The position numbers and the translations under genes are program-made. 49,618 nt of DNA from a virus. Numbering within the stretch: position 1 is the first letter of the stretch; each line of letters starts with the position of its first letter. Positions 1,211 to 34,027 of this stretch are shown piece by piece. The stretch lies in the IMG/VR virus record IMGVR_UViG_3300045988_183527. One strand, written 5' to 3'. Under the pieces are notes generated by a model. That model worked only from the letters and a program-made list of their open reading frames with translations. It was not told where the DNA came from and did no database searches.

Positions 1211-3694
1211 ATGGCAATTGTTCCGGAATACGGCGGCCCGCAGGTGTCGCCCACCGTCGGCGCCGGTACGCAGGGCGCTCAGTTTCAGGCGATGGCCGCT
1301 CCGAAGGCGAACGTCCTCGCGCCGATGGAAAAGGCGATGGACAAAATCGGTCGCATGCAGGCGCAGCTCCTTGAGGAGCAGGACGACGCCATCGCGACGG
1401 ATATCGACACGAAGTACGCCCAATATTGCCAGCAGCTTTTGAACGATCCGAAGACGGGGTTCATGGCTCGTAAGGGGATCAATGCGCTGCAGCCCGATAA
1501 GGACGGCGTGTCGCCCGTAGATGCGATGATGCAGAAGGCGGACGTGTATCTGCAGGAGCTGATGGACGGCCGCACGAAGAACCAGATTGCGCGCGTGAAG
1601 GCGAAGACGGACTCTCGCACGACCGGGCTTTATGCTTCGGGGATGCAGCACGCAATGGCGGAGAACATCAGCTACAACGTTTCCGTTTACCGCGCCAATC
1701 TGCAGTCGGAGCAAGACGCCGGATTGGCGGACTTCAATCAGCCGGAGAAGTTGGCGGAGCACGTGGCGCGTGTGAAGCGCAGTGCCGGTATCCTCTCGAA
1801 GTACACGGGGGAAGACAGCCGCGCCAAGACGCGCGAAGCCGTGGCCGGGGTGTATAAAAATGCCGCCCTGGGCTTTCTCTTCGGCGCGAACAACGACCCG
1901 TCGCTTTACGGGCAGGGCTTGGCCTTTGTGCAGAAGAATGCCAAAAGCATGTTGCCGCAGGACGTCTTTGCGCTGAGTACGCAGTTCAACACGGGGATGA
2001 AGAACTATGAGGCGGTGATTTCCGCACGGGAAGGCATCGCCGCGCTGACGCCGCCGGATGCTCCGACGGATCAAGTGATGGCGGCGATCCGCGGTAACGG
2101 CGCCGGTGCGAAGCCCTTGGCGGGGAGCGAGCATTACGTTATGTCCCAGGGCATTCGCGGTAATCAGCTCGAAGACAAGAACGGCGTCGTATCGATCGTT
2201 GAGACGAAAAAAGGCGGAGAGACGGCCTACGGCTCCGACGGCGTGACGCGCTCTATGGCCGAGGCCGTGGCCGGGAAGAAGCTCACGGACGAGGAATGGA
2301 GAGCGATCTACACCAACAAGGATGAAAGCCAGCGTGTGGGGCTTTCCTATCTCGGCGTGCTGGGAACGAAGTATGGTGAGACGGAAAAGGCCGTAGCGGC
2401 GTACGTCGGAACGCAAAAGGAAGTGGACGACGCCGTGGCGAAGGCGAAGAAGGAAGGCGGTGTTTGGACGCAATACCTTTCGAAGGAAACCGCGGAAGCC
2501 GCGGCGACCGCTTTACGCCGCCTGGACGGGGCGTTTGATACCCCGGTGAAGGGGGCGGACGGCTCGGCGTTGTCGTTCCTTGACAACCGCTACGCGGCCC
2601 GCGCCTATCAGGGTGTCTCTGAAGAAGCCATGCGCGCTTACGCCCGCCAGCACCCGATGTCGATCGACCCGGATTTTGAGGATCGGATGGTGGCCTATAT
2701 GAAGCGCTACGAGTCCGAGCGCATGAACGCTTACACGACGGAACACCAGAACGCCGTCAATACGGCGTGCAGCGAGTACGAACAAAACGGGCAAATATCG
2801 GCGCAGACGCTCATGCGGCTTACGACGAAGGAACGGGGGGCGGTGCGAAAGTACTGCCAGGAATTAGACGCGGGCGGCTTTACCACGAGCACTCATTACG
2901 CCGCGTACCTGGATACCCACCTTGACGAGTTGGGGAATTTCACCAAAGACGAACTTGACAACGCAATGCGCCTGGTGCCCAAGGCCTCCCAACGCCGTTT
3001 CCGCAAGGAGTGGGAACGCCGACACGGGCAGACGCAGGAACAGCTCGAAGCGCGCTATGCCGCCCAAAACGGCATGGTGACGATGGGAAAGACGGGTGTG
3101 CACGTTGGCATGACGATGAAAGCGTTGGGCGATCTTCTCCCGGGGTTCAAAAAGCTCGATACCGATCAGAAGGCAACGATCGCCGAAGGCATCATGAACC
3201 TCGCGGGTTTGACGGCGGCGATTGAAGGCGTGGACTTGAAGGATGCCAACAAGGCGCAGCAGTTCGTTACAGATTTGGTGAAGGACAACGTGTATACCGC
3301 TGGCCACTGGTACGACTGGCTCCCGTGGATTACCAAGGATCGAAAGTCGATTTTCGAATTTAAGTACGGTGATCTCGGTTCCGAGCAAAAGTGGATCGCC
3401 GACGAATTGGCGAAACTCTCGGGGAATGGTCGAAAGATGACGCCGGGGCAACGCATGGGGAATTTGGTGAACTTCATGCTTCTGAAGAACGTGAACATCC
3501 CCGTGGGCTCCATCGCGCAACAACCGCGCGTCCGCAACAAGGTTTACCAGCTGGTCGATCAGGATATGCAGCGTGATCCGAAATACGCGGGCATGAGCCC
3601 GGCACAACGTCGGGCTTTGATTGAGCCTGCTATGAAGAATGACACGGAGGTGGTGCGCCAATATTTGACGCACCTCTTTACGGAGGGCGAATAA
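1211..3694 (+). CDS. Internal virion protein (827 aa), possibly with a divergent lytic-transglycosylase-like segment
   Basis: GGAG lies 8 nt upstream. The stop overlaps the next start (TAATG). The stretch GSDGVTRSMAEAV...ESQRVGLSYLGVLGTKYGETEKAVAAYVGT resembles the GxxQ...YL...AAYNAG part of SLT domains. This is a by-eye similarity only. Confidence 0.5.
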   Translation: MAIVPEYGGPQVSPTVGAGTQGAQFQAMAAPKANVLAPMEKAMDKIGRMQAQLLEEQDDAIATDIDTKYAQYCQQLLNDPKTGFMARKGINALQPDKDGVSPVDAMMQKADVYLQELMDGRTKNQIARVKAKTDSRTTGLYASGMQHAMAENISYNVSVYRANLQSEQDAGLADFNQPEKLAEHVARVKRSAGILSKYTGEDSRAKTREAVAGVYKNAALGFLFGANNDPSLYGQGLAFVQKNAKSMLPQDVFALSTQFNTGMKNYEAVISAREGIAALTPPDAPTDQVMAAIRGNGAGAKPLAGSEHYVMSQGIRGNQLEDKNGVVSIVETKKGGETAYGSDGVTRSMAEAVAGKKLTDEEWRAIYTNKDESQRVGLSYLGVLGTKYGETEKAVAAYVGTQKEVDDAVAKAKKEGGVWTQYLSKETAEAAATALRRLDGAFDTPVKGADGSALSFLDNRYAARAYQGVSEEAMRAYARQHPMSIDPDFEDRMVAYMKRYESERMNAYTTEHQNAVNTACSEYEQNGQISAQTLMRLTTKERGAVRKYCQELDAGGFTTSTHYAAYLDTHLDELGNFTKDELDNAMRLVPKASQRRFRKEWERRHGQTQEQLEARYAAQNGMVTMGKTGVHVGMTMKALGDLLPGFKKLDTDQKATIAEGIMNLAGLTAAIEGVDLKDANKAQQFVTDLVKDNVYTAGHWYDWLPWITKDRKSIFEFKYGDLGSEQKWIADELAKLSGNGRKMTPGQRMGNLVNFMLLKNVNIPVGSIAQQPRVRNKVYQLVDQDMQRDPKYAGMSPAQRRALIEPAMKNDTEVVRQYLTHLFTEGE

Positions 3695-6600
3695 TGGGGC
3701 TTCTTGAAGAAATGCAGCGGGCGTCGGGGGCGTTGCCCGACGTGACGGTGAAGACGGATATCGAACCTGAGGCGGCGTCTCAGTCCTACAAGGCCGCGGC
3801 GGCCTACGGGGCGGACGTGAACGAAGTGGACGAGGATATGCGGCGGCGCTATAAGGAAGCGTCCATATTTGCCGATACGGAAGACGTCTTCCAAGACAGC
3901 ATGCAGAGCCCCGTATTCCGCGCGGCGGTAAAGGGTGACGAGAAATCCGCTTCCACCCTGGGGCGTATCGTCCAAGCCACGGCCGGAGAAGTGGACGTGG
4001 ATGAGGACGGGTACGTTTCGACGATCCGGAAGTCCGCCGCTCGCGGGGAGATCGGCCTCTCGCAAATGGGTGATATATCGAAACTCCTCGCCAAGCGCCA
4101 GGAAGTGAAGCGCCTTGATCGGCTCCTTTCTCTCGGCCTCGGTAAGGATGAAGATGCTCGCGCGTACAAGGCGGCGACGTCGGAGATCAAGGCACTCGCG
4201 AAGGATATCGTCCTGCAGGACGCGATGAGGAAAGTCCTCTCCGCCGGTACCCCCACAGCCAAGATGGCCGAAGCCTACGAGAAAGACGGCATGAGCGGGG
4301 CGATAAAGTCCATGGCCGACTCCGGGTTTTGGAAGACGGTGGCCGACGTCGGGGTTGAGTCCGGCGTGGAATTCGGGGCGGCAGCCCCCTTGATTGCCGT
4401 CGCGGGGAAAGTCCCGGTGTTGGGTAATGTCGTGAGCGGTGTCGCGAGCGGTTACCAGGACTTTACGCTGGGGCTTCTTGAGCGCATGGCGGAGCGCGGC
4501 GTGGACACGAGCAACGCCGATGAGGTGGCGAAGTTTGCCATCCAAAGCCCGGACTTTGACGACGCCGTGGCCGACAGTCTGAAGCACGCCGTGGGTGTGG
4601 GGCTTTTCGACGGCTTGAGCTTCGGCTTGGCGACGAAGGTAGTTCCGAAGTCCCTCGGCTCAAGCGTCGCTGTGAAACTCCCGAAGACGGCGCAGCTTTA
4701 CGAGAACATCAACCGCAACGCCTTCGGCCACGCTTTCACCAACCTTGCCGCGCAGACGGTGGGACAGGGTGCGATGGGCGCGGCGGGTGAAGCCACGGGG
4801 CAGCTGATTGAAAAGGGCGAAGTTACCGACCCCCTGAGTGTGATGCTCGAAGCCGTGGGCGAATTTACCGGCGCGCCGCTCGAAGTTGCCACAGCGGCCG
4901 TGGGCGCCCGGTCTCGTGCTCGTTTCGCCGCCGCCAAAGCGCAGCGCGTACAGGATCAGCTCCGTGCGGCCGCGCAGGTTATTCAGTCCTCGCCCTCCAT
5001 GCAGAAGACGCCGGAACTGCGGGATGCCATGATGCAGCACTTGGCGGAACGCTACGAGGGCGCGGAATCGATTACGGTAGACGTCGCGACGTTGCACCAG
5101 GCGGATAACGGCCAAGAAGTTATTGCCGCGATTGAAAAGGCACTCCCTCACCGTCAGGCGGAGATTGACGAAGCCGTGGCGTCCGGCGGCCCGGTGGATT
5201 TACCTCTGCAGGAATACGGTAAGGTGATTGCCGATCAGCAACTTTCCAATGCCGTCATCGACAATTCGAGCCTCCCGGGGGATGACTTGGCGGTGGAGGC
5301 GAAGGATGCGGAAAGTTCTGTCATCGCCGCAAAGAAGTTCTCGCTTGACAAGTTGTCCGAAGGGCAGACAGACGACTTCAAGGCTTCCATGCGCGAAGTT
5401 GAGACTAGCATCGGAGCCATGCTTGATACGGGAGAAGACGGCCGCAAGACGGAGAACGCCGCCGTCGCCAGCATCATCTTGGCGCAGGTGTCCGCCATGG
5501 CGCAGGATACCGGTATGACGCCGATGGAGGTTTGGCAAGCGCATGGCATCAAGGCCGTCTTGAGCGAAGCCGACGTGAAGCGCAACGAGGACGGGACACT
5601 GACGGCGGTGTCGGAGAAGGCGAAGAAAGTTCTCGCTGAAGGCCGTAGCCTTGACGAAGCCCTGACGCAACCCACGAAGGGCGAGTTCATCCCCTCGAAG
5701 AACGTCATCATCCGTTGGGCGAACGCCGACCGATCCACGCTCCTCCACGAGGCGGGCCACTGGTTCTGGCAGACGCGCATGGAATTGGCGGTCGATCTTA
5801 AGGGCCGCCCGGGATTGACGCCGGAGCAACAAAGATTCGTCCGCAGCACCGAGGACGTCGCCAAGTGGTTGGGCGCAAAGGACGTGGAGCACTACGCCGC
5901 GATGTCTCTCGAACAACGCCGGGCGGCCGAAGAGAAGTTTGCACGCTCCTACGAGCAGTACGTGAAGGAGGGCGTTGCGCCGACGTCGGCTCTGCGCGGG
6001 GCGTTCCAAAAATTCAGCGCATGGCTTAAGCGCATTTACGGCGCGTTGACGGCTGTAAAGGGCTCGGAATTGACACCCGACGTCCGCGAGATGTTCGACG
6101 CGATTATGGTGAGTTCGCAGCAGGTGAAAGAAGCGCAGCTCCGGCGGCACCTTTTTGTTTGGCTCGATCAGGCGGCGCGCAATGAGAACGGCGATCTTAC
6201 GAGCGAGGAGGATCGCCGGGCGTTGAACGTTCTGATGGCCGATCAGGATTACGACGCCGCTGAGGAATTCTTAAAGCGCGGTAAAGCCGTGGTGGGGTAC
6301 CTCGACCGCCTGCGTAAGCGGGTGTATGCCGATATTGAAGCCAAGGCGAAGGAAATCCGCGCGCAGTTCACTGCCGAAGCCATCGCACGTGTCTACGGCG
6401 AAAAGCGCCTGCAGGCGATGGAGAAAATCGACAAGGGCATTAAGGTGCGGGATGCGAAGGGGCGCGAGATGAGCATTCGTCCGCAGATTCCGCTGAAGGA
6501 ACTCGAAGCCGCCGGGGCCACCAAAGAAGAGATCGAAGAACTGCGGCGCCAAAAGTTGGTTACGAATTCCGAAGGGCTCCACGCCGTGCCCGGCGATTAC

Positions 6601-9489
6601 TTAGCCGAGTACCTGGGGTATTCGAGCCTGCAGGAATTTATCGCCGAATTCGGTACCGATCCGTTCCACGGGCAAGAACCCGTGCAGGCGGTAGCGGCTG
6701 AAGTGGAAGCGCGGATGCTGGATGAGCACCCGGAACTCTCCGACAAGGAAACAATTGAAGACGCCGCCGATGCCGCGGTGTTTAATCCGTCGGCGTCCCG
6801 CCTTGTGTTGCTGAAGCTTAATCTCCTCGATCGATCGATCCGCAAGCCCCTGTCGATGGATTTGGTGGAAGCCGTGGCGGAAGCCAAAATCCGCGATAAG
6901 AAAATTGGTGATCTCGATCCGAAGGCCTACCGCAGTTCTGCGGCGAAGTTGGCGAAGCAGGCGTTGAAGGAATCCGACGCGTTCCGTGCGTCCGAATTGC
7001 GTCGCCAGCAGCTCGTGCAAATGAAGACGGCGGAGAAGGCACAGGCGGCGAAGGATCGGGCGGAGCGTTTCGTGAAGACGATGCAGAAGCGCTTTGACGG
7101 CAAGATCGAAACGAATTCGATGCAGCTCGAGTATCTGAAGCAGATCAAAGCCATCCTGAAGAACCTCGGCATTCTCAACCCTGCGGATAATCCTTCTATG
7201 GATGAGAAGGATTGGAGGGCGTTTTTCTCAGACGAAAGTCAATACGTCGGCGTTCCGTCTATGCCTGCGTCCGTCGCCGGGGGCACGTTCTTCGACCGCA
7301 TGACGGTGGAGGAAATGGCACAGACGATCGAATTCTTGGACGATCTGATGGCCGCCGCCCGCGAACGAAATTCCGTCATCGTTAGCGGCAAAAAAGTGGC
7401 GATGGCGGATTTGGATGCCCGCGCCGTTGCGGCGATTGAAGCGCACGCGCAGAAGATGGGGCGTAAGCCTGTGCGCCAAAACGAAGAGCGCGGCTTTGGG
7501 CTGATGGCGGGGCACGCACTCCGTCGGTTCTTCTTTGAGCACATGCGAATCCAAACCCTGTGGTCGATTTTCGAGGGCGAACAACTCGGCAATCTCGGCG
7601 AAGCCTTCGGCCTTCGGATGAATAAAGCCCGCGACAGCGAAACGGAACTCCGCAATCAGTACTCCACCGCCATGTACAAGGCTATGGCGCCTTTACGTCA
7701 GGCGGTGAAAGATACGAAAAAGTTCTTCATCAAGGAACTTGGCGGGACGTTCGACAAGAACCAGCTCATCGCCATGGCGCTTAACGTCGGCAACGACGAG
7801 AACTTCGAGCGGCTCCTTGCGGGCTCCCCAAAGTACACGGACTTCCGCAGCAGCGATGCTGAGTGGACGCGCGACGACGTGCTGAGCGCTATCGGGCGGC
7901 ACCTCTCGAAGGCGGAGCTCGAAGCGGTGCAAAAGGTTTGGGATACCGTCGGCTCCCTGGGGAAGGACGTGCAGGCGTTGGATGAGCGCACCCGCAACCG
8001 CTGGACGGCGCTCGTTGACGCCAAGGAGGTGACGTTCACTACAGCGGACGGCGAGACGGTAACGCTGAAGGGCGGCTACTACCCGATCCAATACGACCGC
8101 TACGCCAGCCTCTTCCGCGGCAAGGCTGACGCGTACGAGAACGGCGTGGATTCCATCATGGCCCACGGGCGCCGCAATTCTGACACCGGCCACAGCAAAG
8201 CGCGCAAGGGCATCAACGGTAATCCCATCGCGCTCACGCTGGACGCAGGTTTTACGGCGCTTACCGACGTCATCCACGATCTCACGTGGCGTGAGCTCCT
8301 GATGGATATGAACAAGCTCTTCAACTCTGAGTCGGGCGTGGTGGAGACGATCAAGAAGTACTACGGCGCTGAGGCCGTCAATTCCATCAAGGATTGGATG
8401 GAAGACGTCGCGACGAACGGCAAGTCCATTCCTTCGATTTGGTGGGTTGACTTCATGCGGCGGAACGTTTCTATCGCCGGGTTGGGGCTCAATATTCAGA
8501 CGGCGGCGCTGCAACCCATCGGGCTTACGCAGTCCTTCGCCGTCGTCGGAGTTCCCGCGGTACTGAAAGGCTTCGGGCAGTTTTGGCTTAACCCTGTGCG
8601 CGCCAACCGTGATGTGCTTGCGAAGTCCGCCCTGATGCGGGATCGTATGCGCACGCGCTTTAAGGAATTAGCGGAAGCGCAGAAGGAAATCGCGCAGACG
8701 AACGGCGTGGTTCGAGGGCAGAACGCCATTGCTCGTGTAGCTTTCGCGCCGATCGTCTTCGCCCAAATGCAGTGCGTGGATATCCCCACGTGGCTCGGCT
8801 CTTATCAAAAGCACTTGAACGAGGGTACCGCCAAGGGGCTGAGCGGGGAAGAGTTGGAGGACTTCGCCGTAGCCCGCGCGGATGACGACGTTGTACGTTC
8901 CCAGGGCTCCGGCGCTTTGTCGGACTTGGCGAAGGTGGAGCGAAAGAAGAATATTTGGAACATCTTCTACAGCTTCTTCGGTACGGCATTGAACGCCGGA
9001 ACGCTCGTCTATAACACGCAGGACGGATGGCGCAAGTGGATGGCCTTCGCATCGATTTATGCCGTTCAACCGGTGATCGAATCCTTCCTGCGCGCCGGTA
9101 TCCAAGGTGCGACGGGGGATGACGACGACTATTGGGATCGGGTCTCCGGACGCGTTTTAGGCGATCTCGCCGGTATGTGGTGTGGCCTCTTTATGGTTTC
9201 CCGCGAAGTGGGGACGATCCTCAGCAATCGTATCGGCGACAATAACTACGGCTACAGCGGCCCCGCGGGCATTCGCACGTTGGTCGATGCCGACAAACTC
9301 GTTGCCCAGGTGTTGCAGGGTGAGAACGATGTTGCGTTGGCGAAGTCGATTAACTCGTTCGTTCTTGGCGATATCTTCGGGTTGCCGTCTACGGCGTTTA
9401 ACCGTTTGGCCGAAACAGCTTACGCGGTGAACGACGGTGAAGACGTCAACGCGCTGATGAGCGTGCTCTTTGGGTACAAGAAGAATTAG
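3694..9489 (+). CDS. Giant (1931 aa) polyvalent virion/ejection protein with HExxH zincin motif
   Basis: The frame is uninterrupted. LLHEAGHWFWQ (HEAGH at 5746..5760) is followed by EEKFARSYEQYVKEGVAPTSALRGAFQKFSAWLKRIY. The C-terminal third contains hydrophobic segments. The gene occupies the slot of the largest internal core protein of podoviruses. Confidence 0.7.
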   Translation: MGLLEEMQRASGALPDVTVKTDIEPEAASQSYKAAAAYGADVNEVDEDMRRRYKEASIFADTEDVFQDSMQSPVFRAAVKGDEKSASTLGRIVQATAGEVDVDEDGYVSTIRKSAARGEIGLSQMGDISKLLAKRQEVKRLDRLLSLGLGKDEDARAYKAATSEIKALAKDIVLQDAMRKVLSAGTPTAKMAEAYEKDGMSGAIKSMADSGFWKTVADVGVESGVEFGAAAPLIAVAGKVPVLGNVVSGVASGYQDFTLGLLERMAERGVDTSNADEVAKFAIQSPDFDDAVADSLKHAVGVGLFDGLSFGLATKVVPKSLGSSVAVKLPKTAQLYENINRNAFGHAFTNLAAQTVGQGAMGAAGEATGQLIEKGEVTDPLSVMLEAVGEFTGAPLEVATAAVGARSRARFAAAKAQRVQDQLRAAAQVIQSSPSMQKTPELRDAMMQHLAERYEGAESITVDVATLHQADNGQEVIAAIEKALPHRQAEIDEAVASGGPVDLPLQEYGKVIADQQLSNAVIDNSSLPGDDLAVEAKDAESSVIAAKKFSLDKLSEGQTDDFKASMREVETSIGAMLDTGEDGRKTENAAVASIILAQVSAMAQDTGMTPMEVWQAHGIKAVLSEADVKRNEDGTLTAVSEKAKKVLAEGRSLDEALTQPTKGEFIPSKNVIIRWANADRSTLLHEAGHWFWQTRMELAVDLKGRPGLTPEQQRFVRSTEDVAKWLGAKDVEHYAAMSLEQRRAAEEKFARSYEQYVKEGVAPTSALRGAFQKFSAWLKRIYGALTAVKGSELTPDVREMFDAIMVSSQQVKEAQLRRHLFVWLDQAARNENGDLTSEEDRRALNVLMADQDYDAAEEFLKRGKAVVGYLDRLRKRVYADIEAKAKEIRAQFTAEAIARVYGEKRLQAMEKIDKGIKVRDAKGREMSIRPQIPLKELEAAGATKEEIEELRRQKLVTNSEGLHAVPGDYLAEYLGYSSLQEFIAEFGTDPFHGQEPVQAVAAEVEARMLDEHPELSDKETIEDAADAAVFNPSASRLVLLKLNLLDRSIRKPLSMDLVEAVAEAKIRDKKIGDLDPKAYRSSAAKLAKQALKESDAFRASELRRQQLVQMKTAEKAQAAKDRAERFVKTMQKRFDGKIETNSMQLEYLKQIKAILKNLGILNPADNPSMDEKDWRAFFSDESQYVGVPSMPASVAGGTFFDRMTVEEMAQTIEFLDDLMAAARERNSVIVSGKKVAMADLDARAVAAIEAHAQKMGRKPVRQNEERGFGLMAGHALRRFFFEHMRIQTLWSIFEGEQLGNLGEAFGLRMNKARDSETELRNQYSTAMYKAMAPLRQAVKDTKKFFIKELGGTFDKNQLIAMALNVGNDENFERLLAGSPKYTDFRSSDAEWTRDDVLSAIGRHLSKAELEAVQKVWDTVGSLGKDVQALDERTRNRWTALVDAKEVTFTTADGETVTLKGGYYPIQYDRYASLFRGKADAYENGVDSIMAHGRRNSDTGHSKARKGINGNPIALTLDAGFTALTDVIHDLTWRELLMDMNKLFNSESGVVETIKKYYGAEAVNSIKDWMEDVATNGKSIPSIWWVDFMRRNVSIAGLGLNIQTAALQPIGLTQSFAVVGVPAVLKGFGQFWLNPVRANRDVLAKSALMRDRMRTRFKELAEAQKEIAQTNGVVRGQNAIARVAFAPIVFAQMQCVDIPTWLGSYQKHLNEGTAKGLSGEELEDFAVARADDDVVRSQGSGALSDLAKVERKKNIWNIFYSFFGTALNAGTLVYNTQDGWRKWMAFASIYAVQPVIESFLRAGIQGATGDDDDYWDRVSGRVLGDLAGMWCGLFMVSREVGTILSNRIGDNNYGYSGPAGIRTLVDADKLVAQVLQGENDVALAKSINSFVLGDIFGLPSTAFNRLAETAYAVNDGEDVNALMSVLFGYKKN

Positions 9490-13023: not shown

Positions 13024-13428
13024 ATGATTGGAACTAAATTTACCAAGCCGTTACAGGCGAATAAAATCACCCGCTACGAGGGGATGAAGGAGATCAAGGA
13101 GGACAACCCTGCCCCCAACACCTACGCCAAGTACGCCGAAGCCGCGGCATGGTGCAACGCCAACAACGCGATGATCGAGGACAAGGGCGACTACTGTGAG
13201 GTGGTGGCGATACCCGCTCCTACAACCGAAGAACTCGCGGCTCAAGCCCGGTCTCAGCGCGACGCGCTCATCGCGGCGACGGACTACCTGATGGCGACGG
13301 ACTACCCGCTCACTGACGAGAAACGGCATGAGCTCACTGTCTACCGTCAAGCGTTGCGAGACGTTCCGGAGCAATCGGGTTTCCCGACGGAGATCGTTTG
13401 GCCGACAAAACCCACGTGGGTGAAGTAA
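13024..13428 (+). CDS. Tail fibre assembly chaperone (Tfa)
   Basis: The C-terminal RDALIAATDYLMATDYPLTDEKRHELTVYRQALRDVPEQSGFPTEIVWPTKP is the classical tail-assembly-chaperone signature. It lies directly after the receptor-binding gene. Confidence 0.85.
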   Translation: MIGTKFTKPLQANKITRYEGMKEIKEDNPAPNTYAKYAEAAAWCNANNAMIEDKGDYCEVVAIPAPTTEELAAQARSQRDALIAATDYLMATDYPLTDEKRHELTVYRQALRDVPEQSGFPTEIVWPTKPTWVK

Positions 13429-13445
13429 CTTCAGACGGCGACAAC

Positions 13446-13470
13446 AAACCCCGGCTCGACCGGGGTTTTT
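13446..13470 (+). terminator. Rho-independent terminator ending the long rightward operon
   Basis: AAACCCCGG-CTCGA-CCGGGGTTT followed by a T run. It starts 18 nt after the Tfa stop. Confidence 0.75.
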
Positions 13471-13488
13471 CGTGCGCGTACAGACCGC

Positions 13489-13674
13489 CTATTCTTTGCA
13501 GACTGCCTTCATGGTGGCGATGGCGCACCACGCTTTTTCAAGCACGCGAACGTCCTCACCGCTTAAGCCGCCACTGTCGCGGGCTTCATCGCACACCTTG
13601 TCGATTTTTTCGAGCAGGCAGTGCATGGATTGCTCCGCGCGGGCCTTCATAAGTTCCTTCGTTTCCATAATCAT
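13489..13674 (-). CDS. Hypothetical protein (61 aa), last gene of the Com-associated cassette
   Basis: ATGA start/stop overlap with the upstream gene. No recognisable motif. Confidence 0.55.
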   Translation of the reverse strand: MIMETKELMKARAEQSMHCLLEKIDKVCDEARDSGGLSGEDVRVLEKAWCAIATMKAVCKE

Positions 13675-14006
13675 TCTCCATGCCGGTTCATGATTTCCTT
13701 CAGCGCATCCAGGTCGCCTCGATCAGGCTTGTACGGCCCGATGGCGAACGGGTGCGCTTCAAGGTTCTTTGCGGCTTCGCCGTACAGTAAGTCCACGTCG
13801 ATTCGGTTTTGCTCATCCACCGCTCCCAAAGACTTAAGCATCGGCAGATAAGGTTCGATCATCGCCGGGGCCCGCTGTGCGACGAGCCCCGAGACGATGC
13901 CGACGGTGAAGGGCAGAGAGCCGCCCTGCTTTTCTGCGGCAGGAATGAGGACTTGCTGAGCAAATTCCACAACCACCGCAGGCAAGTTTCCAATCGGCAT
14001 TCTCAT
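13671..14006 (-). CDS. Hypothetical protein (111 aa), Com-associated cassette
   Basis: Starts 4 nt after the stop of the 212-aa gene. No recognisable motif. Confidence 0.6.
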   Translation of the reverse strand: MRMPIGNLPAVVVEFAQQVLIPAAEKQGGSLPFTVGIVSGLVAQRAPAMIEPYLPMLKSLGAVDEQNRIDVDLLYGEAAKNLEAHPFAIGPYKPDRGDLDALKEIMNRHGE

Positions 14007-14009
14007 GGC

Positions 14010-14648
14010 TTAACCCCGGTTGACGTTGATGCTGCCAGTCACCGGCTGAACCGCCGGAGCCGCGGCTGTGGGCGCAACCCACGAGTTGTAGCGTTCCATC
14101 ACTTCAGGGCAGATCGCTGTGCGCGGGATAACCGTGTGGGTGATCTGGTTCAACGTGTTGTTGATACCGGCGACAGCGTTGTTGAGCTGGGCAATACCAC
14201 AGCCGCACGTCTGCGCAACGGAATCAATTCGCGCACCAAGTTCGGAACGCACCAACTTTTCGCGGAGATCAGCAATTTCGCCGTTCTTGGCCTGCTGGGC
14301 TTCGAGCACCGCAACACGTTCGCGGTTGCTCGCGGCTTCCTGAGAGAGCGGCGTGATGAAAGCCATCAAACGATTTTCGAGTTTCTCGTTTTCAGAGCGC
14401 GTCGCCTGATAAAGCGTCGCGTCCCGATTGTCCGAGTACTTCTGCGAAGTGAGCTCGGCGATCTTGGCGTCCTTTTCAGCAATGACGCCCATCGCGGCCA
14501 TCTGCGGGGCGCAGTTGTTTCCACCAAAAAGGCCGCCGAGGATTCCACCGTTGCCGTTATTGGCAGAGCCAAGAAAGCCGAGGGAGCCCAAGACAAGGGC
14601 AGGGATGCCTACACCATTAGCGAGGCCTTTAGAAGCAAATTCAGCCAT
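14010..14648 (-). CDS. Membrane-anchored Gly-rich/coiled-coil protein (212 aa) of unknown function
   Basis: N-terminal hydrophobic segment GIPALVLGSLGFLGS, then NGNGGILGGLFGGNNC, a long heptad-like region and a Cys-containing C-terminus. Its SD and AUG lie inside a perfect hairpin (14645..14669). Confidence 0.7.
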   Translation of the reverse strand: MAEFASKGLANGVGIPALVLGSLGFLGSANNGNGGILGGLFGGNNCAPQMAAMGVIAEKDAKIAELTSQKYSDNRDATLYQATRSENEKLENRLMAFITPLSQEAASNRERVAVLEAQQAKNGEIADLREKLVRSELGARIDSVAQTCGCGIAQLNNAVAGINNTLNQITHTVIPRTAICPEVMERYNSWVAPTAAAPAVQPVTGSINVNRG

Positions 14649-14669
14649 AGCAAACTCCTTTTGCTATGG
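14645..14669 (-). promoter_or_regulatory. Translation-inhibitory hairpin: CCAUAGCAAA-AGGAG-UUUGCUAUGG (SD in the loop, AUG in the 3' arm)
   Basis: A perfect 10-bp stem read on the minus strand. The loop is exactly AGGAG. The AUG (14648..14646) of the 212-aa gene is base-paired. A small GAAC-CUCGA-GUUC hairpin sits immediately upstream. Confidence 0.7.
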
Positions 14670-14680
14670 AACTCGAGGTT

Positions 14681-14842
14681 CTATTTGGCGCTCGGTTGGC
14701 GCTGGCTAGTAGGCTCAGAGGCCTTGCGATCGATGGCGACCGAAGCTTTACACCTCGGGCACTTTGCTACGATCTTGCCCCGAAGATCGGGGCTTATGTC
14801 AAAGAGACGTTTCCCGCAATGCGGGCAGAGCACTTGTTCCAT
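14681..14842 (-). CDS. com: Mu Com-like zinc-finger protein (53 aa; below the 60-aa cut-off of the ORF track)
   Basis: Minus-strand translation gives MEQVLCPHCGKRLFDISPDLRGKIVAKCPRCKASVAIDRKASEPTSQRQPSAK. The CPHCGK...KCPRCK spacing matches the Com translational-activator family. AGGAAGG lies 7 nt upstream of the ATG. Confidence 0.7.
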   Translation of the reverse strand: MEQVLCPHCGKRLFDISPDLRGKIVAKCPRCKASVAIDRKASEPTSQRQPSAK

Positions 14843-14884
14843 GATTTGCCCTTCCTAAAACTCTGTGCAGGAAGGACTTTAAAT

Positions 14885-16045
14885 TCAGGGCTCTTCTTCA
14901 TTCGTCAGGGCATCCGCCCAACGCTGCATGAGCGCCCGTCGTTGCTCGAGAAGATCGGCTCTGTAGTAGGCCACCGTGGTGTTCGTTCCCCACCGATGCC
15001 CGAGGGACTTTTCTGCCTCCGCGTCGGGCTCGTGGTTTAAGGCGCACCAGTCACGGAAGGTGGAACGAATCCCGTGGGTCGTTATCTGCGGCGGCTCATC
15101 CTCATCCTCGTTTTCCTCCCCCTCAGACTTAGCCGGGGCGAGGCGGGGGCATATTTCCTGCAGATTATCCAAGACAGACTTTTTATCTACGTGCCTGCCC
15201 GCGCCTTTTCCTTCGAAGACAAAAGCTCCTTGCGAAGCCATGGCAAGCGCTTCTTCAGCAAGAGACGACAAAGGAATGCGAAGGGTGTCGTTCGTCTTTC
15301 GGTGCTTGTCCGGGCAAGTCCAAACCCCCGGCTGCAGCTCGCCTGGCTCCGCCTTACAAGCTTCGTCAACACGGCAGACCGTGGCTATGACAAAGAGCAG
15401 GCAAGCCCGAACTTTGGAAGGGTGCGCTCGGATGAAACGAACGGCGTGGCGAAGTTCGGCCATGGTTGGGGTGACAAAGTGCTCCGTTTTGTGCACCTTC
15501 CCCAGGGCGGGGAGTTTGGTGCTGAGCTTGCCTTTCCAAACGGCAGGATTTGGATCGTCGCGGTAGCCATTGTTGATGGCCCAATCAAACAGCGCCTCAA
15601 GCCTGACGCGGATAACAGAAGCGGTCGGGGGAATGGATACCCACAATGGCTCCAATAGGCTAAAGATATCTTGCCGCGTAATCGTATCGATAGGCATAGC
15701 GCCGATCACCGGGGCAACGTGGGTAAGCATGGTGCTGCGCCAGTGCTTGTACTGCGCTTCCGTTTTCCAACGACGCAACTTGCGTACCCCTTCCAAGCCT
15801 ATTGGAAGAAATTCGGCGAACGTCGGCTTCGGCGCCGCTTCTTTGGTTTTCTCCTCTGGCTTGCTGGTAAGGCAGACGGCAACGGCGTGCTTTGCGTCTC
15901 GCAATCCTATGGAATCCACGGTACCGAGGCTGCGCTCGATGCGCTTCCCGGCAATGGTTCCGCGGAACACGTAATACTCGTTGCCGTTCTCCCGCGCGTA
16001 AATGTATAGATGATCTGCGACTTTAACTTTGGTTATCTTTGACAC
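14885..16045 (-). CDS. int: Tyrosine integrase (P4-type)
   Basis: 386 aa. The N-terminal YIYARENGNEYYVFRGTIAGKRIERSLG arm-binding-type domain is present. The C-terminus carries HGIRSTFRDW...LGH...VAYY catalytic residues. GTG start with GGGGGA upstream. Confidence 0.92.
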   Translation of the reverse strand: MSKITKVKVADHLYIYARENGNEYYVFRGTIAGKRIERSLGTVDSIGLRDAKHAVAVCLTSKPEEKTKEAAPKPTFAEFLPIGLEGVRKLRRWKTEAQYKHWRSTMLTHVAPVIGAMPIDTITRQDIFSLLEPLWVSIPPTASVIRVRLEALFDWAINNGYRDDPNPAVWKGKLSTKLPALGKVHKTEHFVTPTMAELRHAVRFIRAHPSKVRACLLFVIATVCRVDEACKAEPGELQPGVWTCPDKHRKTNDTLRIPLSSLAEEALAMASQGAFVFEGKGAGRHVDKKSVLDNLQEICPRLAPAKSEGEENEDEDEPPQITTHGIRSTFRDWCALNHEPDAEAEKSLGHRWGTNTTVAYYRADLLEQRRALMQRWADALTNEEEP

Positions 16046-16046
16046 T

Positions 16047-16089
16047 TTGTTCCCCCGATTGTTCCCCGATTTGCGGCGTTGTTCCCCGC
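16047..16089 (+). repeat. Three direct copies of TTGTTCCCC(C)G(A/C): candidate Int arm-type sites (attP left cluster)
   Basis: Copies at 16047, 16059 and 16079. Copy 1 overlaps the SD of int. Confidence 0.5.
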
Positions 16090-16168
16090 AAAAAGGCGTA
16101 GTCGGGCGAAGTCTAGCGAATAAACGCGTAGAAAGGCAAAGACTACTAACGTAATAAAATCAACGAGT

Positions 16169-16195
16169 AAAAAGAAAAGCCCGTGGATACGGGCT
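16169..16195 (-). terminator. Rho-independent terminator of the leftward (replication-lysis) operon
   Basis: On the minus strand AGCCCGU-AUCC-ACGGGCU is followed by UUUUCUUUUU. It lies about 95 nt downstream of the spanin stop. Confidence 0.75.
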
Positions 16196-16263
16196 TAGCA
16201 GGAAATTCTATTCCTCTTTGTAGAAAAAACGAGTGAACATAGCAATTGCAGGACTTAGCAGGT

Positions 16264-16286
16264 TTGTTCCCCGATTTGTTCCCCGA
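16264..16286 (+). repeat. Two more direct copies of TTGTTCCCCGA (attP right cluster)
   Basis: Copies at 16264 and 16276, in the same orientation as the 16047..16089 copies. CTTAGCAGG is also repeated at 16194 and 16254. Confidence 0.5.
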
Positions 16287-16288
16287 AA

Positions 16289-16714
16289 TTATTTTAGGAT
16301 TTCGGCGAGGGCGTCGTGGTTGGCTGCGCTCCGTTGATAGTGTCGGCCGCATTCCGAACCAGCGTCAACCAGTCGTTGAACCAGCTTTTCCAGCTCGGTA
16401 ACTCGGGCGTTAAGAGCGTCTGCGGAATTTCCTTCGGCGCTTCGGCGACGGTTCGCGTCGCGCAACCGGGCGCGATAGCTATCAAGATCGCCGCGCAGAG
16501 CGTCGTACTCAGACGACGCCAATAAGATAGTGTCCGTCGCTTTTGCAAGTCCTGCGGCATGGCTTTCCTGCGCCTCCTTCAGCGCGATGGCTTGCGCCCT
16601 TTCCATCTCGGCAATTTGCTTCTCGTACTTCAACTCCGCCGCGTGGTAGCCGAGGTAGGCGCAGATTAGAAGCAGGCACACACCTGCGGCAGTGGTTATA
16701 AAGCCTTTGTTCAC
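16289..16714 (-). CDS. Rz: i-spanin (Rz-like)
   Basis: N-terminal TM (ITTAAGVCLLLICAYLGYH), a coiled-coil periplasmic domain, and last position in the lysis cassette. It contains an embedded +1-frame lipoprotein ORF. Confidence 0.75.
   Translation of the reverse strand: MNKGFITTAAGVCLLLICAYLGYHAAELKYEKQIAEMERAQAIALKEAQESHAAGLAKATDTILLASSEYDALRGDLDSYRARLRDANRRRSAEGNSADALNARVTELEKLVQRLVDAGSECGRHYQRSAANHDALAEILK
16294..16560 (-). CDS. Rz1: o-spanin (Rz1-like), fully embedded in the i-spanin gene
   Basis: Basic n-region KRRTLSYWRR, hydrophobic core and AILIAIAPGC (non-canonical lipobox). The mature part is short and Pro-rich (PKEIPQTLLTPELPSW...). Confidence 0.55.
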   Translation of the reverse strand: MPQDLQKRRTLSYWRRLSTTLCAAILIAIAPGCATRTVAEAPKEIPQTLLTPELPSWKSWFNDWLTLVRNAADTINGAQPTTTPSPKS

Positions 16715-16938
16715 TTCTTCGCCTTCTTCACTCGGCGGCCTTGGCGGTAGTCATAGGCTTCCTTCAGCATCCACGCGAAGCAACGCTGGTCTTCCTCGTT
16801 CAACTTCAGCGGGGCTTCGGCTTCATCCTCGCCATTGCTGATGCGCACGTCGATGTAAATCTTGCCGCGGACGCGGCGCATGCGGAGATCGATACCCTTG
16901 CCGGTGAAACCTTCTTCGGATAAATACTTCTTGCTCAT
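16711..16938 (-). CDS. Hypothetical protein (75 aa) between endolysin and spanins
   Basis: 4-nt overlaps at both ends. The protein is charged and soluble, with no motif. Confidence 0.6.
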   Translation of the reverse strand: MSKKYLSEEGFTGKGIDLRMRRVRGKIYIDVRISNGEDEAEAPLKLNEEDQRCFAWMLKEAYDYRQGRRVKKAKK

Positions 16939-17309
16939 TTCTTTGTCCTCTTATCAAAACGCGCGGCGTAACCGCGGCGGTCTACGTGAACGAACGTGTC
17001 ATAGATTCCCACGCCGCCCGTCACGTTCAAACGGCGGCAGAGTTCCCACAGCGTGGGTAAATCTTTCTGATCCTCCGGCCGGATATCAGCGGCCAGCCCT
17101 TGGGTGTGGTAGGAATTGGGAACGCCGCCCACGTGTGCGTTCCGCGACGGACTGCGATAGCCGGACGTCACGATGAGGGGCTTACCGAAAAGGAGACGCA
17201 CACGGTTTAAAAAATCCACGAGTTCTTGGCGCACGTTCATCGGGCCCCAAGGGGAGGGGGCGCCGTCGTGGGAAGCAAACTCTTTGCTGTCGAAGAAGCC
17301 GTCTTTCAT
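16935..17309 (-). CDS. Endolysin, peptidase M15 (VanY/L-Ala-D-Glu peptidase-like)
   Basis: SGYRSPSRNAHVGGVPNSYHTQGLAADI...FVHVD supplies the H-x6-D...H zinc ligands. The start was chosen at the internal ATG 17309, which forms an ATGA overlap with the holin stop and has GGAAGG upstream. Confidence 0.85.
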   Translation of the reverse strand: MKDGFFDSKEFASHDGAPSPWGPMNVRQELVDFLNRVRLLFGKPLIVTSGYRSPSRNAHVGGVPNSYHTQGLAADIRPEDQKDLPTLWELCRRLNVTGGVGIYDTFVHVDRRGYAARFDKRTKK

Positions 17310-17602
17310 CCTTCCACCCCCGTGCGCTTGCGCAACAGGGCGAAGGCAAAGCTCACGCCTTCCTTCCCGGCAAAGCCGCCGAGGCCGGAAAGCGCGCCGT
17401 AAAGCTTCACGTCCAAACCGTAGGATTCGCCCGCAAGGGCAATGAGAAAGCCGATGAAGCCCGACAAGGCCACGGCCCAAAAGAACTCCCAACCCGAGAA
17501 GGGCTTGCCTTTCTCCCGCGAGTTGAGATACATGAGTGCTTGTGCCATAGCTGCTACCCCCGTACAAAAGAGGTAAGGAAAGAAACCGTGCTGATTGTCC
17601 AT
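17306..17602 (-). CDS. Holin
   Basis: 98 aa with three hydrophobic segments and a charged C-terminus (LLRKRTGVEG). It lies immediately upstream of, and overlapping, the endolysin. Confidence 0.7.
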   Translation of the reverse strand: MDNQHGFFPYLFCTGVAAMAQALMYLNSREKGKPFSGWEFFWAVALSGFIGFLIALAGESYGLDVKLYGALSGLGGFAGKEGVSFAFALLRKRTGVEG

Positions 17603-17649
17603 GGTGCGTCCTTTATCTGTACGTCCATTGTGTGGTACAAATCAGCCGT

Positions 17650-17668
17650 CTTTCGTCACTGACGAAAG
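17650..17668 (-). promoter_or_regulatory. 9-bp perfect inverted repeat CTTTCGTCA-C-TGACGAAAG upstream of the holin gene
   Basis: Read directly in the 165-bp gap between the AlpA-like gene and the holin gene. Confidence 0.35.
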
Positions 17669-17724
17669 GACTTCGCGGAATCAGCTATGCTTCCGCGCAG
17701 AGTACCTCGAGTACCATGCCCTTC

Positions 17725-17775
17725 GCCCGGTCGAATATCTGTGCAAACCTTCGACCGGGCTTTCCTTTTATTTGC
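17725..17775 (+). terminator. 11-bp GC-rich hairpin (GCCCGGTCGAA N14 TTCGACCGGGC) with its T run only on the + strand
   Basis: The hairpin is followed by TTTCCTTTTATTT on the + strand. On the minus (coding) strand no U run follows, so it may stop antisense transcription or act as a processing or antitermination element. Confidence 0.4.
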
Positions 17776-17971
17776 GCAGGTTCTTCTCCGACCGGCGGCG
17801 CAAAGTCTCAAGTGTCTTCTCCACGGCGTCGTCAAACCAGTAGGTGCTGAGGCCGATCCGGACGGGCGCGGGAACTTTCCCCTGCCTCACCCATTTACAC
17901 AGCGTAGTTTCACTAATACCCAGGGCGTCCTTTAATTGCTGACGCGAAATCATTCCTTTAGGTGCAGTCAT
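17768..17971 (-). CDS. AlpA/excisionase-type HTH DNA-binding protein
   Basis: ISRQQLKDALGISETTLCKWVRQGKVPAPVRIG matches the AlpA/Xis (MerR-like winged helix) pattern. 67 aa. Confidence 0.7.
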   Translation of the reverse strand: MTAPKGMISRQQLKDALGISETTLCKWVRQGKVPAPVRIGLSTYWFDDAVEKTLETLRRRSEKNLRK

Positions 17972-17995
17972 GCTTTAATCTCTTAAGGGTTATTC

Positions 17996-18463
17996 CTAAG
18001 TCTTCTGAGATGCGAAAGTTTTTTGGATCGGTCGGAGCTTGTGGGACTCAGCCCATGCGTTGAACGCAGTTCGGCAATCGGAACGTTCCAAACAAAGATA
18101 GCCGTAAGCCATCAGCACACCGTGGATTCGTTCTTCAAGCGGCAGTTCCAAGATGCCGCGGTGATCTTTCCGGAATCGCTCGGGGAGGCTCCCCCAAAAC
18201 TGTCCCGCCAAAACCCCCACATCTAAGGCGGCGCCGGAGCGCGTGCAATAGAAAGGCATCCTCGCCACCGGCGATTCGCGCACCCTGTCTTTCCGATTCG
18301 TCGCCCAATCTTTCACGACGCGTAAGGCGTGTGGATAGGTTCTTCCGAACTCTTCGCACAGATAGAAGGCCAACTCCGAAGCGCTCACCCATTCTTGCGA
18401 CAGTTGATCCAGGCGGTTGTACATTGCCAACGTCTTCGCCTGCAGTCCTCCGCGACGGCTCAT
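17996..18463 (-). CDS. Hypothetical protein (155 aa)
   Basis: Starts 3 nt after the SNF2 helicase stop. No motif. Confidence 0.6.
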   Translation of the reverse strand: MSRRGGLQAKTLAMYNRLDQLSQEWVSASELAFYLCEEFGRTYPHALRVVKDWATNRKDRVRESPVARMPFYCTRSGAALDVGVLAGQFWGSLPERFRKDHRGILELPLEERIHGVLMAYGYLCLERSDCRTAFNAWAESHKLRPIQKTFASQKT

Positions 18464-33872: not shown

Positions 33873-33947
33873 AGGGGCGTAGCCAAGCGGTAAGGCATCG
33901 GATTTTGATTCCGTTTACCGGTGGTTCGAATCCATCCGCCCCTGCCA
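33873..33947 (+). tRNA. tRNA-Gln: tRNA-Gln (anticodon UUG), CCA encoded
   Basis: Cloverleaf: AGGGGCG/CGCCCCT acceptor, a GCCAAGCGGTAAGGCA D-arm identical to the E. coli tRNA-Gln D-arm as I recall it, anticodon loop TTTTGAT, T-arm GGTGG-TTCGAAT-CCATC, and discriminator G plus CCA. Confidence 0.9.
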
Positions 33948-33954
33948 TAAGTGC

Positions 33955-34027
33955 GGGAACCTAGCTTAACGGAGAGAGCGCCGGAAGTAAACCGGAGGGC
34001 GAGGTTCGAATCCTCGGGGGCCCGCCA
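33955..34027 (+). tRNA. Non-canonical tRNA-like element (possible pseudo-tRNA), 7 nt after tRNA-Gln
   Basis: Good T-arm CGAGG-TTCGAAT-CCTCG, D-arm GCTT/GAGC, and G plus CCA at the 3' end. However, the acceptor GGGAACC/GGGGCCC has tandem A-G mismatches, the anticodon loop AAGTAAA lacks U33 (nominal GUA), and the variable region is only about 3 nt. Confidence 0.4.

Follow-up and report, generated by a model that had tools for sequence, protein, structure and literature searches.

A probable Com-type translational switch ahead of a conserved three-gene module in a gut phage genome

Introduction

How is the small minus-strand cassette beside the integrase gene (int) of the viral genome IMGVR_UViG_3300045988_183527 controlled, and what do its genes do? 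We analyzed this IMG/VR record over its full 49,618 nucleotides (nt), referred to here as the window (~49.6 kb, ~58% GC), which appears to be a whole phage genome. A first-pass annotation, made from the sequence letters, had proposed that a 53-amino-acid (aa) open reading frame (ORF) resembling Com of phage Mu, followed by a hairpin that closes the start site of the next gene, reproduces the Mu com/mom logic in front of three genes that are not Mom-like. We conclude that the region is a Com-type translational activation switch, built like Mu com-mom with a different target, a reading to which we assign a probability of roughly 78%.

Results

The 53-aa ORF and its likeness to Mu Com

Is the 53-aa ORF a Com protein? 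It lies where the first-pass annotation had placed it and has the predicted CxxC...CxxC layout.

14681..14842, minus strand: com-like gene, 53 aa, MEQVLCPHCGKRLFD...KCPRCKASV, with an N-terminal Cys4 zinc ribbon

Its cysteines are arranged as C6-x2-C9 and C28-x2-C31, which fits the family layout of ~40-75 aa with CxxC-(16-20)-CxxC, and its C-terminal tail is probably disordered. The proposed likeness to Mu Com was borne out by profile and pairwise comparisons. The protein matched PHROG 6417 ("translational regulator," E 1.2e-7) and PHROG 13819 (gpCom, E 1.4e-4), and BLASTP against Mu Com, in a sequence that is a 100% match to the Mu genome, gave 32% identity across the whole zinc ribbon (E 2e-7). 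When a 14-sequence profile of com-like proteins (fourteen homologues that other phages encode ahead of this target gene) was compared with Mu Com, the hhalign probability was 96.3% (E 1.8e-9). C6, P7, C9, R12, D15, C28, and C31 are invariant among the com-like relatives, and the four cysteines are kept in all 16 aligned sequences (15 com-likes and Mu Com), 13 of which match PHROG 6417. The window protein and Mu Com also have in common K11, L13, F14, the P-R pair of the second knuckle, and the K that follows it. On this profile evidence, and despite a missed Pfam threshold, we class the 53-aa protein as a Com-family zinc ribbon.

Com-type hairpins upstream of the target gene

Next is the question of what such a protein would bind. 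Com is reported to select the motif CC(N)2-3GAG, displayed by a short hairpin that always closes with a C-G pair, beside a translation-inhibition structure (PMC6483171). The leader of the first cassette gene, which encodes a 212-aa protein, contains the following elements.

14711..14724, minus strand: hairpin A, AGGC[CUCUGA]GCCU, inside the com coding region; a hexaloop with a C-G closing pair (CC-UCU-GAG), found by a regular-expression scan
14688..14702, minus strand: hairpin B, GCGC[CAACCGA]GCGC, in the last com codons; a 7-nt C...GA loop with a C-G closing pair
14669..14681, minus strand: hairpin C, GAAC[CUCGA]GUUC (CC-UC-GAG), beginning at the last base of the com stop codon
14645..14669, minus strand: translation-inhibition stem, CCAUAGCAAA[AGGAG]UUUGCUAUGG, a perfect 10 bp with the Shine-Dalgarno (SD) sequence as its loop and the AUG (14648-14646) in its 3' arm

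The first-pass annotation had described a single small hairpin, GAAC-CUCGA-GUUC, before the stem. That hairpin is present (14681-14669), but it is the last of three tandem hairpins, two of which lie inside the com 3' end. Hairpins A and C fit CC(N)2-3GAG exactly, and the loop of hairpin B is one base over the consensus from systematic evolution of ligands by exponential enrichment (SELEX). Hairpin C is weak by itself (-0.8 kcal/mol) and shares C14669 with the start-site stem. Three Com-type hairpins in 56 nt form the sole such cluster in the window.

We searched viral and genome collections with the 212-aa protein and obtained 97 loci (given L numbers below) whose targets are 26-95% identical to it. 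Among the loci examined, an upstream com-like ORF was confined to Sutterellaceae-type loci. In 19 distinct leaders (target proteins 29-95% identical), hairpins A to C are 95.6% paired, and 8 of their 12 pairs have changed on both sides; none of 500 shuffles reached these values, and slid registers collapse. Thus, GCGC/GCGC becomes AAGC/GCUU, and GAAC/GUUC becomes AAAC/GUUU or AAGC/GCUU. Compensatory changes were found in three of the four pairs of hairpin A and likewise of hairpin B, which is 100% paired, and the closing C-G pair is kept in 19/19 leaders for A and C and in 18/19 for B. A Com-type hairpin at <=45 nt from the AUG was present in 22/22 com-bearing leaders versus 1/51 com-less leaders (Fisher p 9e-18; the leaders are related rather than independent, so that p-values given here overstate the support). 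The mean number of Com-type hairpins in the last 100 nt was 2.8 in com-bearing leaders and 0.02 in com-less leaders. These comparisons argue that the RNA structure is held by selection and tied to the presence of com.

The same observations bear on a different reading of the peptide and hairpins, namely, that the protein belongs to another zinc-finger class, such as a Lar-like restriction alleviation protein or a DNA-binding regulator, and that the hairpins are generic mRNA stability, RNase III, or attenuation elements. For the window protein, generic zinc-ribbon Pfam families score equal to or above Zn_ribbon_Com, and there are weak matches to Lar families (TIGR03655, 7.7e-4; PHROG 6422, 0.015). 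However, all of these matches fall under the curated cut-offs and cover single knuckles only, while the best full-length matches are to Com families. Furthermore, the loops keep the C...GA and C-G features, beyond the stems alone, and the hairpins are found only where com is. No U-tract follows hairpins A to C, and an Rfam search of the leader matched no family. We consider this reading very improbable.

The start site of the target gene

Is the start site of the 212-aa gene closed? The first-pass annotation had placed a perfect 10-bp stem, with the SD as its loop and the AUG at 14648 in its 3' arm, after a 32-nt gap, and all of these features proved exact; 32 nt separate the com stop codon (14683-14681) from the AUG. 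Folding of the leader, which that annotation had suggested as a check, formed the start-site stem with a paired AUG. The stem alone has a predicted energy of -11.8 kcal/mol, and the AUG is essentially always paired in the fold ensemble. The 81-nt leader folds at -27.9 kcal/mol (z = -3.6), and 1 of 200 shuffles folds as well. In the minimum free energy (MFE) structures, the stem is prolonged.

14636..14675, minus strand: predicted OFF-state stem extension pairing CGAGUU (14675-14670) with AAUUUG (14641-14636, codons 3-5)

This extension uses the 3' half of hairpin C and hence excludes that hairpin; forcing hairpin C to form costs 4.3 kcal/mol. The same competition is predicted in distant com-bearing leaders (L074, L087, and L093), in which the GUUU of hairpin C pairs downstream of the SD.

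Covariation in homologous phages had also been named as a check on the leader structure, and compensatory changes were found in the start-site stem as well as in the hairpins. In L003, L004, and L084, the AG/CU of the inhibitory stem beside the AUG has become GA/UC, a compensation read from individual folds, as a MAFFT alignment of the start-site stems misregisters L003 and L084. A distant subgroup (L072-L093) uses another register in which an anti-SD run pairs with the SD, and this run tracks the SD sequence (UUUCCUC/GAGGAAA in L074, UCUCUU/AGGAGA in others). The mean unpaired probability of the ribosome-binding site (RBS) is 0.37 in com-bearing versus 0.63 in com-less leaders, and that of the AUG is 0.22 versus 0.64 (Mann-Whitney p 2.7e-9). 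The com-less relatives thus have an open RBS.

The short distance between com and the stem raises the possibility of coupling in cis, in which ribosomes translating or terminating on the micro-ORF unwind the stem and the peptide itself has no function. The com stop codon is 12 nt before the 5' arm of the stem, so that hairpin C would be melted, and the stem reached, by a ribosome that terminates there, and the distance from stop to AUG is also short (38-42 nt) in L076, L084, and L093. However, at other com-bearing loci the stop is 57-94 nt upstream of the AUG, beyond the ribosome footprint, and the hairpins and the closed RBS are kept there. Because of this distance in many relatives, purely cis coupling is unlikely. 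Additionally, the peptide keeps its four cysteines, P7, R12, and D15 across sequences that are 30-56% identical and resembles Mu Com, and the hairpin loops fit a SELEX-derived protein-binding motif. We therefore give coupling in cis little chance of being the whole explanation. The Com-type switch, in which a Com-binding hairpin sits next to an inhibition stem as in Mu com/mom, is supported by homology, the published motif, covariation, and co-occurrence with com.

A model of the switch

How would the switch operate? The 53-aa zinc-ribbon protein would be translated from the same mRNA and bind hairpins A to C. By stabilizing hairpin C, Com would remove the lower part of the inhibitory helix, and Com at A and B, together with this stabilization, would open or remodel the stem so that ribosomes could start. 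As long as the RBS of the 212-aa gene was closed, all three genes would be silent; one switch is expected to gate them all because the 111- and 61-aa genes each begin next to, or in overlap with, the stop codon of the gene before.

The com gene has its own structured start site, which the first-pass annotation had recognized as a 7-bp stem (14850..14856/14869..14875).

14848..14877, minus strand: hairpin over com's own SD, GUCCUUCCUG / UAGGAAGGGC, read from the sequence and present in the MFE and centroid folds

The com SD, AGGAAGG (14856-14850), pairs with 14875-14869, and G-U pairs extend the stem to 10 bp (14877-14868/14857-14848). Of 15 com-bearing relatives examined, about eight likewise have a predicted anti-SD stem ahead of com. 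Because the stem that covers the com SD in the window starts 8 nt past the int stop codon, Com synthesis may, speculatively, depend on ribosomes finishing int. The net effect would be a threshold or a delay, with the module made only when both transcript and Com are abundant. Given such tight gating, the module is probably harmful or timing-critical.

Beyond the relatedness of the leaders, several points weigh against the switch. A lone Com-type hairpin is not rare by chance, with 23 in the window (both strands) versus 30.7 +/- 6.1 in shuffles; conservation, covariation, and co-occurrence with com are stronger evidence than the occurrence of a single hairpin. The window's Com-like protein is below the Pfam cut-off for PF10122 (Zn_ribbon_Com), which is outside its best 25 Pfam hits and matches 9 of the 16 aligned sequences, Mu Com among them (E <= 0.1, best 2.7e-9). 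A sigma-70 promoter scan of 13300-18000 found no promoter-like site. The core stem has an energy of -11.8 kcal/mol versus -6.8 kcal/mol in Mu, and stabilization of hairpin C alone would leave it intact. Finally, we infer zinc binding, RNA binding, and Com-dependent translation from sequence.

Some relatives depart from the usual com gene. L008, L020, and L085 (Duodenibacillus massiliensis, NZ_LT635856) encode, ~240 nt upstream of the 212-aa homologue, a Com variant with both knuckles shortened to CxC (MEVQVRCRCGKRLFD...ILCRCKT), and they keep all of the three-hairpin leader. The variant is either a regulator in decay or one with a working CxC...CxC zinc site. In L014, the com ORF is gone and the hairpins and closed start-site stem are retained, and L015 has a frameshift within com. 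If these losses are real rather than assembly errors, the module should be untranslatable in both.

The three-gene target module

What does the switch control? The cassette consists of three closely spaced genes.

14010..14648, minus strand: target gene 1, 212 aa, with the N-terminus MAEFASKG, a Gly-rich segment, a long helix, and a C-terminal Pro/Cys/Trp motif
13671..14006, minus strand: target gene 2, 111 aa; its start codon is 3 nt past the stop of the 212-aa gene
13489..13674, minus strand: target gene 3, encoding a helical 61-aa protein; start codon overlapping the 111-aa stop codon (ATGA)

The sizes given by the first-pass annotation were confirmed, as was the absence of Mom likeness; no Mom, methyltransferase, or other enzymatic domain was found in any of the three proteins. 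The 111- and 61-aa proteins are not the ORFans that they had been called. They belong to a conserved trio with thousands of homologues.

The 212-aa protein has 726 homologues by single-sequence search and >5375 by profile, none with a Pfam domain or a name. They form 860 clusters at 50% identity, of which the best 150 span 70-271 aa and are all stand-alone, with no domain fusions. The N-terminus MAEFASKG is nearly invariant in the family, the length of the helix varies, and P175, C180, P181, W190, and P193 make up a conserved C-terminal motif. The Gly-rich hydrophobic segment (Kyte-Doolittle [KD] value of 1.75 over residues 13-29 of the window protein; KD 1.5-1.9 in the family) may be a membrane anchor. 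AlphaFold2 predicted one helix (residues 47-171) with low-confidence ends and a mean predicted local distance difference test (pLDDT) score of 63.6, and a profile search of PDB sequences with the family returned only coiled-coil noise.

A homologue of the 111-aa protein is encoded next after the 212-aa homologue in most loci examined. Its AlphaFold2 model is confident (mean pLDDT 94.3; predicted template modeling score, 0.85). Foldseek found no PDB match to this model, the Bak/Bax and globin rows being meaningless at E > 2, and the BFVD matches were uncharacterised phage proteins only, including those of the crAss-like phages cr118_1 and cr108_1. Homologues of the 61-aa protein occupy the same position in Sutterellaceae-type and L026-type loci, and small helical ORFs stand in its place in other lineages.

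The trio is conserved in phages of Sutterellaceae, Bacteroides-type, and Firmicutes hosts (three phyla), usually beside tail-fibre or lysis genes. The module had been assigned to an int-proximal moron slot. It does adjoin int in the window, but in relatives it abuts the lysis cassette or follows a tail-fibre assembly gene. In the Sutterellaceae group, the order is holin-endolysin-Rz-com-212-111-61 in L083 and com-212-111-61-holin-endolysin-Rz-int in L084; in L076, of the same group, the module is followed by endolysin-holin-Rz, and in the Firmicutes-type L078 it is preceded by holin-amidase-regulator. In low-GC Bacteroides-type phages, the trio comes directly after a co-oriented tail-fibre assembly gene. 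Directly upstream of the module, L078 encodes a 70-aa sigma-factor region-4-like protein (2692-2904; PHROG 1190, 8e-5) and L026 a 77-aa AlpA/excisionase (Xis)-like helix-turn-helix (HTH) protein (2643-2876; PHROG 66, 8e-7). The annotated DAC23 neighbourhood reads "hypothetical protein" throughout.

Other leaders of the module carry structures of their own. In L024 and L025, an 85-aa Cys-rich ORF with a signal-peptide-like N-terminus (2662-3000) takes com's place before the module, and a different 10-bp anti-SD stem, CCUCCUGUAU...AUACAGGAGG, flanks the SD, which may represent independent gating of the same module. In the low-GC, com-less L038-L065, a small covarying hairpin lies at about -30 to -15 before the 212-aa homologue, just before an SD-like AAAGGA (for example, CUAGC-UUAAU-GCUAG, CUAGUC-UACAU-GACUAG, and CACGUGU-ACG-UUACACG). 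This hairpin may act separately, in regulation or in processing.

Possible roles of the module

The role of the module is the weakest step of our argument. We favor, tentatively and at well below even odds, an accessory complex that acts late, at the envelope, and is connected with lysis or egress. In this picture, the N-terminal Gly-rich segment would anchor the 212-aa protein, which would carry a long coiled coil with a conserved C-terminal tip and have the 111- and 61-aa proteins as its partners. Four points count against this role. The phage already encodes a holin, an endolysin, and Rz/Rz1; phages of monoderm as well as diderm hosts have homologues of the module; slots beside lysis and tail-fibre genes are classic cargo slots too; and searches of Pfam, PHROGs, NCBIfam, and PADLOC with the three module proteins gave only coiled-coil noise, with no PADLOC hit.

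About as likely as the lysis or egress role is a cargo function, for instance exclusion or a membrane toxin, or a fibre. The same switch would then carry another payload, such as a superinfection exclusion system, a toxin (bacteriocin-like or membrane) paired with an immunity protein, or a virion fibre and its chaperones, and we hold this possibility to be a serious one that falls somewhat short of an even chance. The module occupies two classic lambdoid cargo slots, after tail-fibre/tfa next to int and beside the lysis cassette, and the small regulators just upstream differ by lineage (Com, sigma-like HTH, and AlpA/Xis-like HTH). Furthermore, Pseudomonas com-like genes precede tailocin bacteriocin cargo (PMC6240691), and a coiled coil that varies in length between conserved ends would also suit a fibre. 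However, modules that are 29-40% identical, with a near-invariant N-terminus, across three phyla and several morphotypes would be unusual for receptor-specific exclusion proteins or baseplate-attached fibres. PADLOC gave no hits for the module proteins, and the ~40 aa past the helix of the 212-aa protein are small for a toxin domain.

Two specific assignments of the 212-aa protein were rejected. As a two-component spanin it fails on the separate Rz/Rz1-like pair at 16289-16714, the lack of a lipobox ORF in the module, and the presence of homologues beside Gram-positive-type holin-amidase cassettes, spanins being needed only in diderm hosts. A holin reading was likewise rejected.

Genome and locus context

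The genes and signals around the cassette are as follows.

13024-13428, plus strand: tail-fibre assembly gene (Pfam Phage_tail_APC), which ends the plus-strand head and tail genes
13441..13470, no strand assigned: bidirectional terminator-like hairpin of the intrinsic type, AAAAACCCCGG-UCGAG-CCGGGGUUUGUUGU, read directly from the sequence
14885..16045, minus strand: int, tyrosine integrase (Pfam Phage_int_M, E 1.5e-16; Phage_integrase, E 4.6e-7; PHROG 1, E 4e-38)
16177-16196: strong terminator between the lysis genes and int, from a consensus scan
16289-16714, minus strand: Rz-like ORF containing an embedded out-of-frame ORF
16294-16560, minus strand: embedded 88-aa ORF with a lipobox-like IAPGC, out of frame within the Rz-like ORF

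On the minus strand, the order is holin, endolysin, Rz-like gene, the terminator at 16177-16196, int, com, and the three target genes, with int directly upstream of com in the same orientation. The hairpin at 13441-13470 separates the cassette from the convergent tail-fibre assembly gene and closes the int-com-212-111-61 unit; it is absent from the listing of the consensus terminator scan. The Rz-like ORF and its embedded lipobox ORF have the classic layout of an embedded Rz/Rz1 spanin pair. The endolysin ORF as listed (16935-17567, TTG start) overlaps the holin ORF (17306-17602), and the real endolysin start is therefore probably further downstream.

Four minus-strand copies of TCGGGGAACAA, one with a mismatch, are found at 16276-16286, 16264-16274, 16079-16089, and 16059-16069, one pair inside the 3'-terminal part of the Rz ORF and the other shortly before the int start. 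In the entire window, there are 6 matches versus 1.07 expected. These repeats look like arm-type integrase sites around attP. The four copies flank 16046-16290, which suggests an attP in the interval from int to the lysis operon terminator, so that int would separate it from the cassette.

The phage is integrase-carrying and siphovirus-like. With blastn, the region had no match among 50,697 phage records. The closest isolate with the module is Duodenibacillus massiliensis (NZ_LT635856, L085), at 79% identity, so that the host is probably a gut member of the Sutterellaceae. Elsewhere, the phage carries tRNA-Gln(UUG) and tRNA-Tyr(GUA) genes 7 nt apart (33873-34027, plus strand) and, in the tail region, a single 1931-aa ORF (3694-9489, plus strand), which is unusually large for a ~50-kb phage.

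Discussion

That Com-like genes can precede non-Mom cargo is already known. New here are a conserved three-gene target that crosses phyla, a three-site operator with a much stronger inhibitory stem, a sequestered com SD, and the phage lineage, together with comparative support for the natural use of a SELEX-defined motif far from Mu. Com control would thereby reach past DNA modification and the Mu-like phages, into a lambda-like gut phage and a membrane-protein module.

We know of no structure of a Com-RNA complex. This lineage supplies about twenty natural Com/operator pairs with covarying stems, conserved C...GA loops, one to three sites, and a CxC...CxC variant, which make a ready mutational series for the rules of recognition and for cooperativity. 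The trio itself has thousands of members in human-gut phages and one partner with a confident, unmatched fold, and nothing in it is annotated. A broader proposal, which we regard as doubtful, is that the trio is a previously unrecognised cross-phylum envelope machine, either of the lysis, egress, or membrane-remodelling class or for general exclusion. It would be harmful and placed under dedicated regulators in each lineage, with a cooperative three-site Com operator in Sutterellaceae phages opening a stem too stable for unaided ribosomes.

Comparison with known systems

Like Rz-type i-spanins, the 212-aa protein has a short N-terminal hydrophobic anchor, a long coiled coil, a Cys/Pro C-terminus, and a lysis-gene neighbourhood. 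Unlike them, it occurs in a phage that already has Rz with an embedded Rz1-like lipoprotein ORF, has homologues in phages with Gram-positive-type lysis cassettes, and is without sequence similarity to spanin families.

Mu com-mom shares several features with the window. Both encode, just ahead of the target and on the same mRNA, a small Cys4 zinc ribbon whose tail is disordered. Both also have a CC(N)2-3GAG hairpin with C-G closing, in or after the com 3' end and abutting a stem, and that stem has an SD-bearing loop and a 3' arm that includes the start codon. In the Mu sequence, AUGC[CUGCGA]GCAU directly abuts CCCAC[GGAGAAACAUU]GUGGG, with the SD in the loop and a GUG start in the 3' arm. Unlike in Mu, the window target is neither Mom nor a DNA-modifying enzyme, there are three tandem hairpins rather than one, the inhibitory stem is ~5 kcal/mol more stable, com and the target do not overlap, and com's own SD is sequestered. 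Mu is transposable, whereas the window phage carries an integrase, is siphovirus-like, and has a probable Sutterellaceae host.

In other phages, com homologues stand before adenine methyltransferases (FluMu HI1522.1-hin1523, Pnm1, H. influenzae comHia-hia5, and phage B3 ORF47-48) (PMC3299994). The same layout of hairpin and stem was found in phages Chuche (com-methyltransferase) and JD024 (com-Mom-like), and two Com-type hairpins are present in JD024, a Pseudomonas phage. Com-like genes of Pseudomonas lie ahead of llpA and other bacteriocin genes, and also of genes for tailocin lytic enzymes and for levansucrases, and the authors noted that the wider role of Com is still to be explored (PMC6240691). 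Like these non-Mom systems, the window has a PF10122-type com-like gene directly before variable, potentially harmful phage or prophage cargo. To our knowledge, their operator RNA is without covariation support of the kind given here. Unlike in those systems, the cargo in the window is a three-gene module conserved across phyla, and the lineage that carries it is one of gut Sutterellaceae phages.

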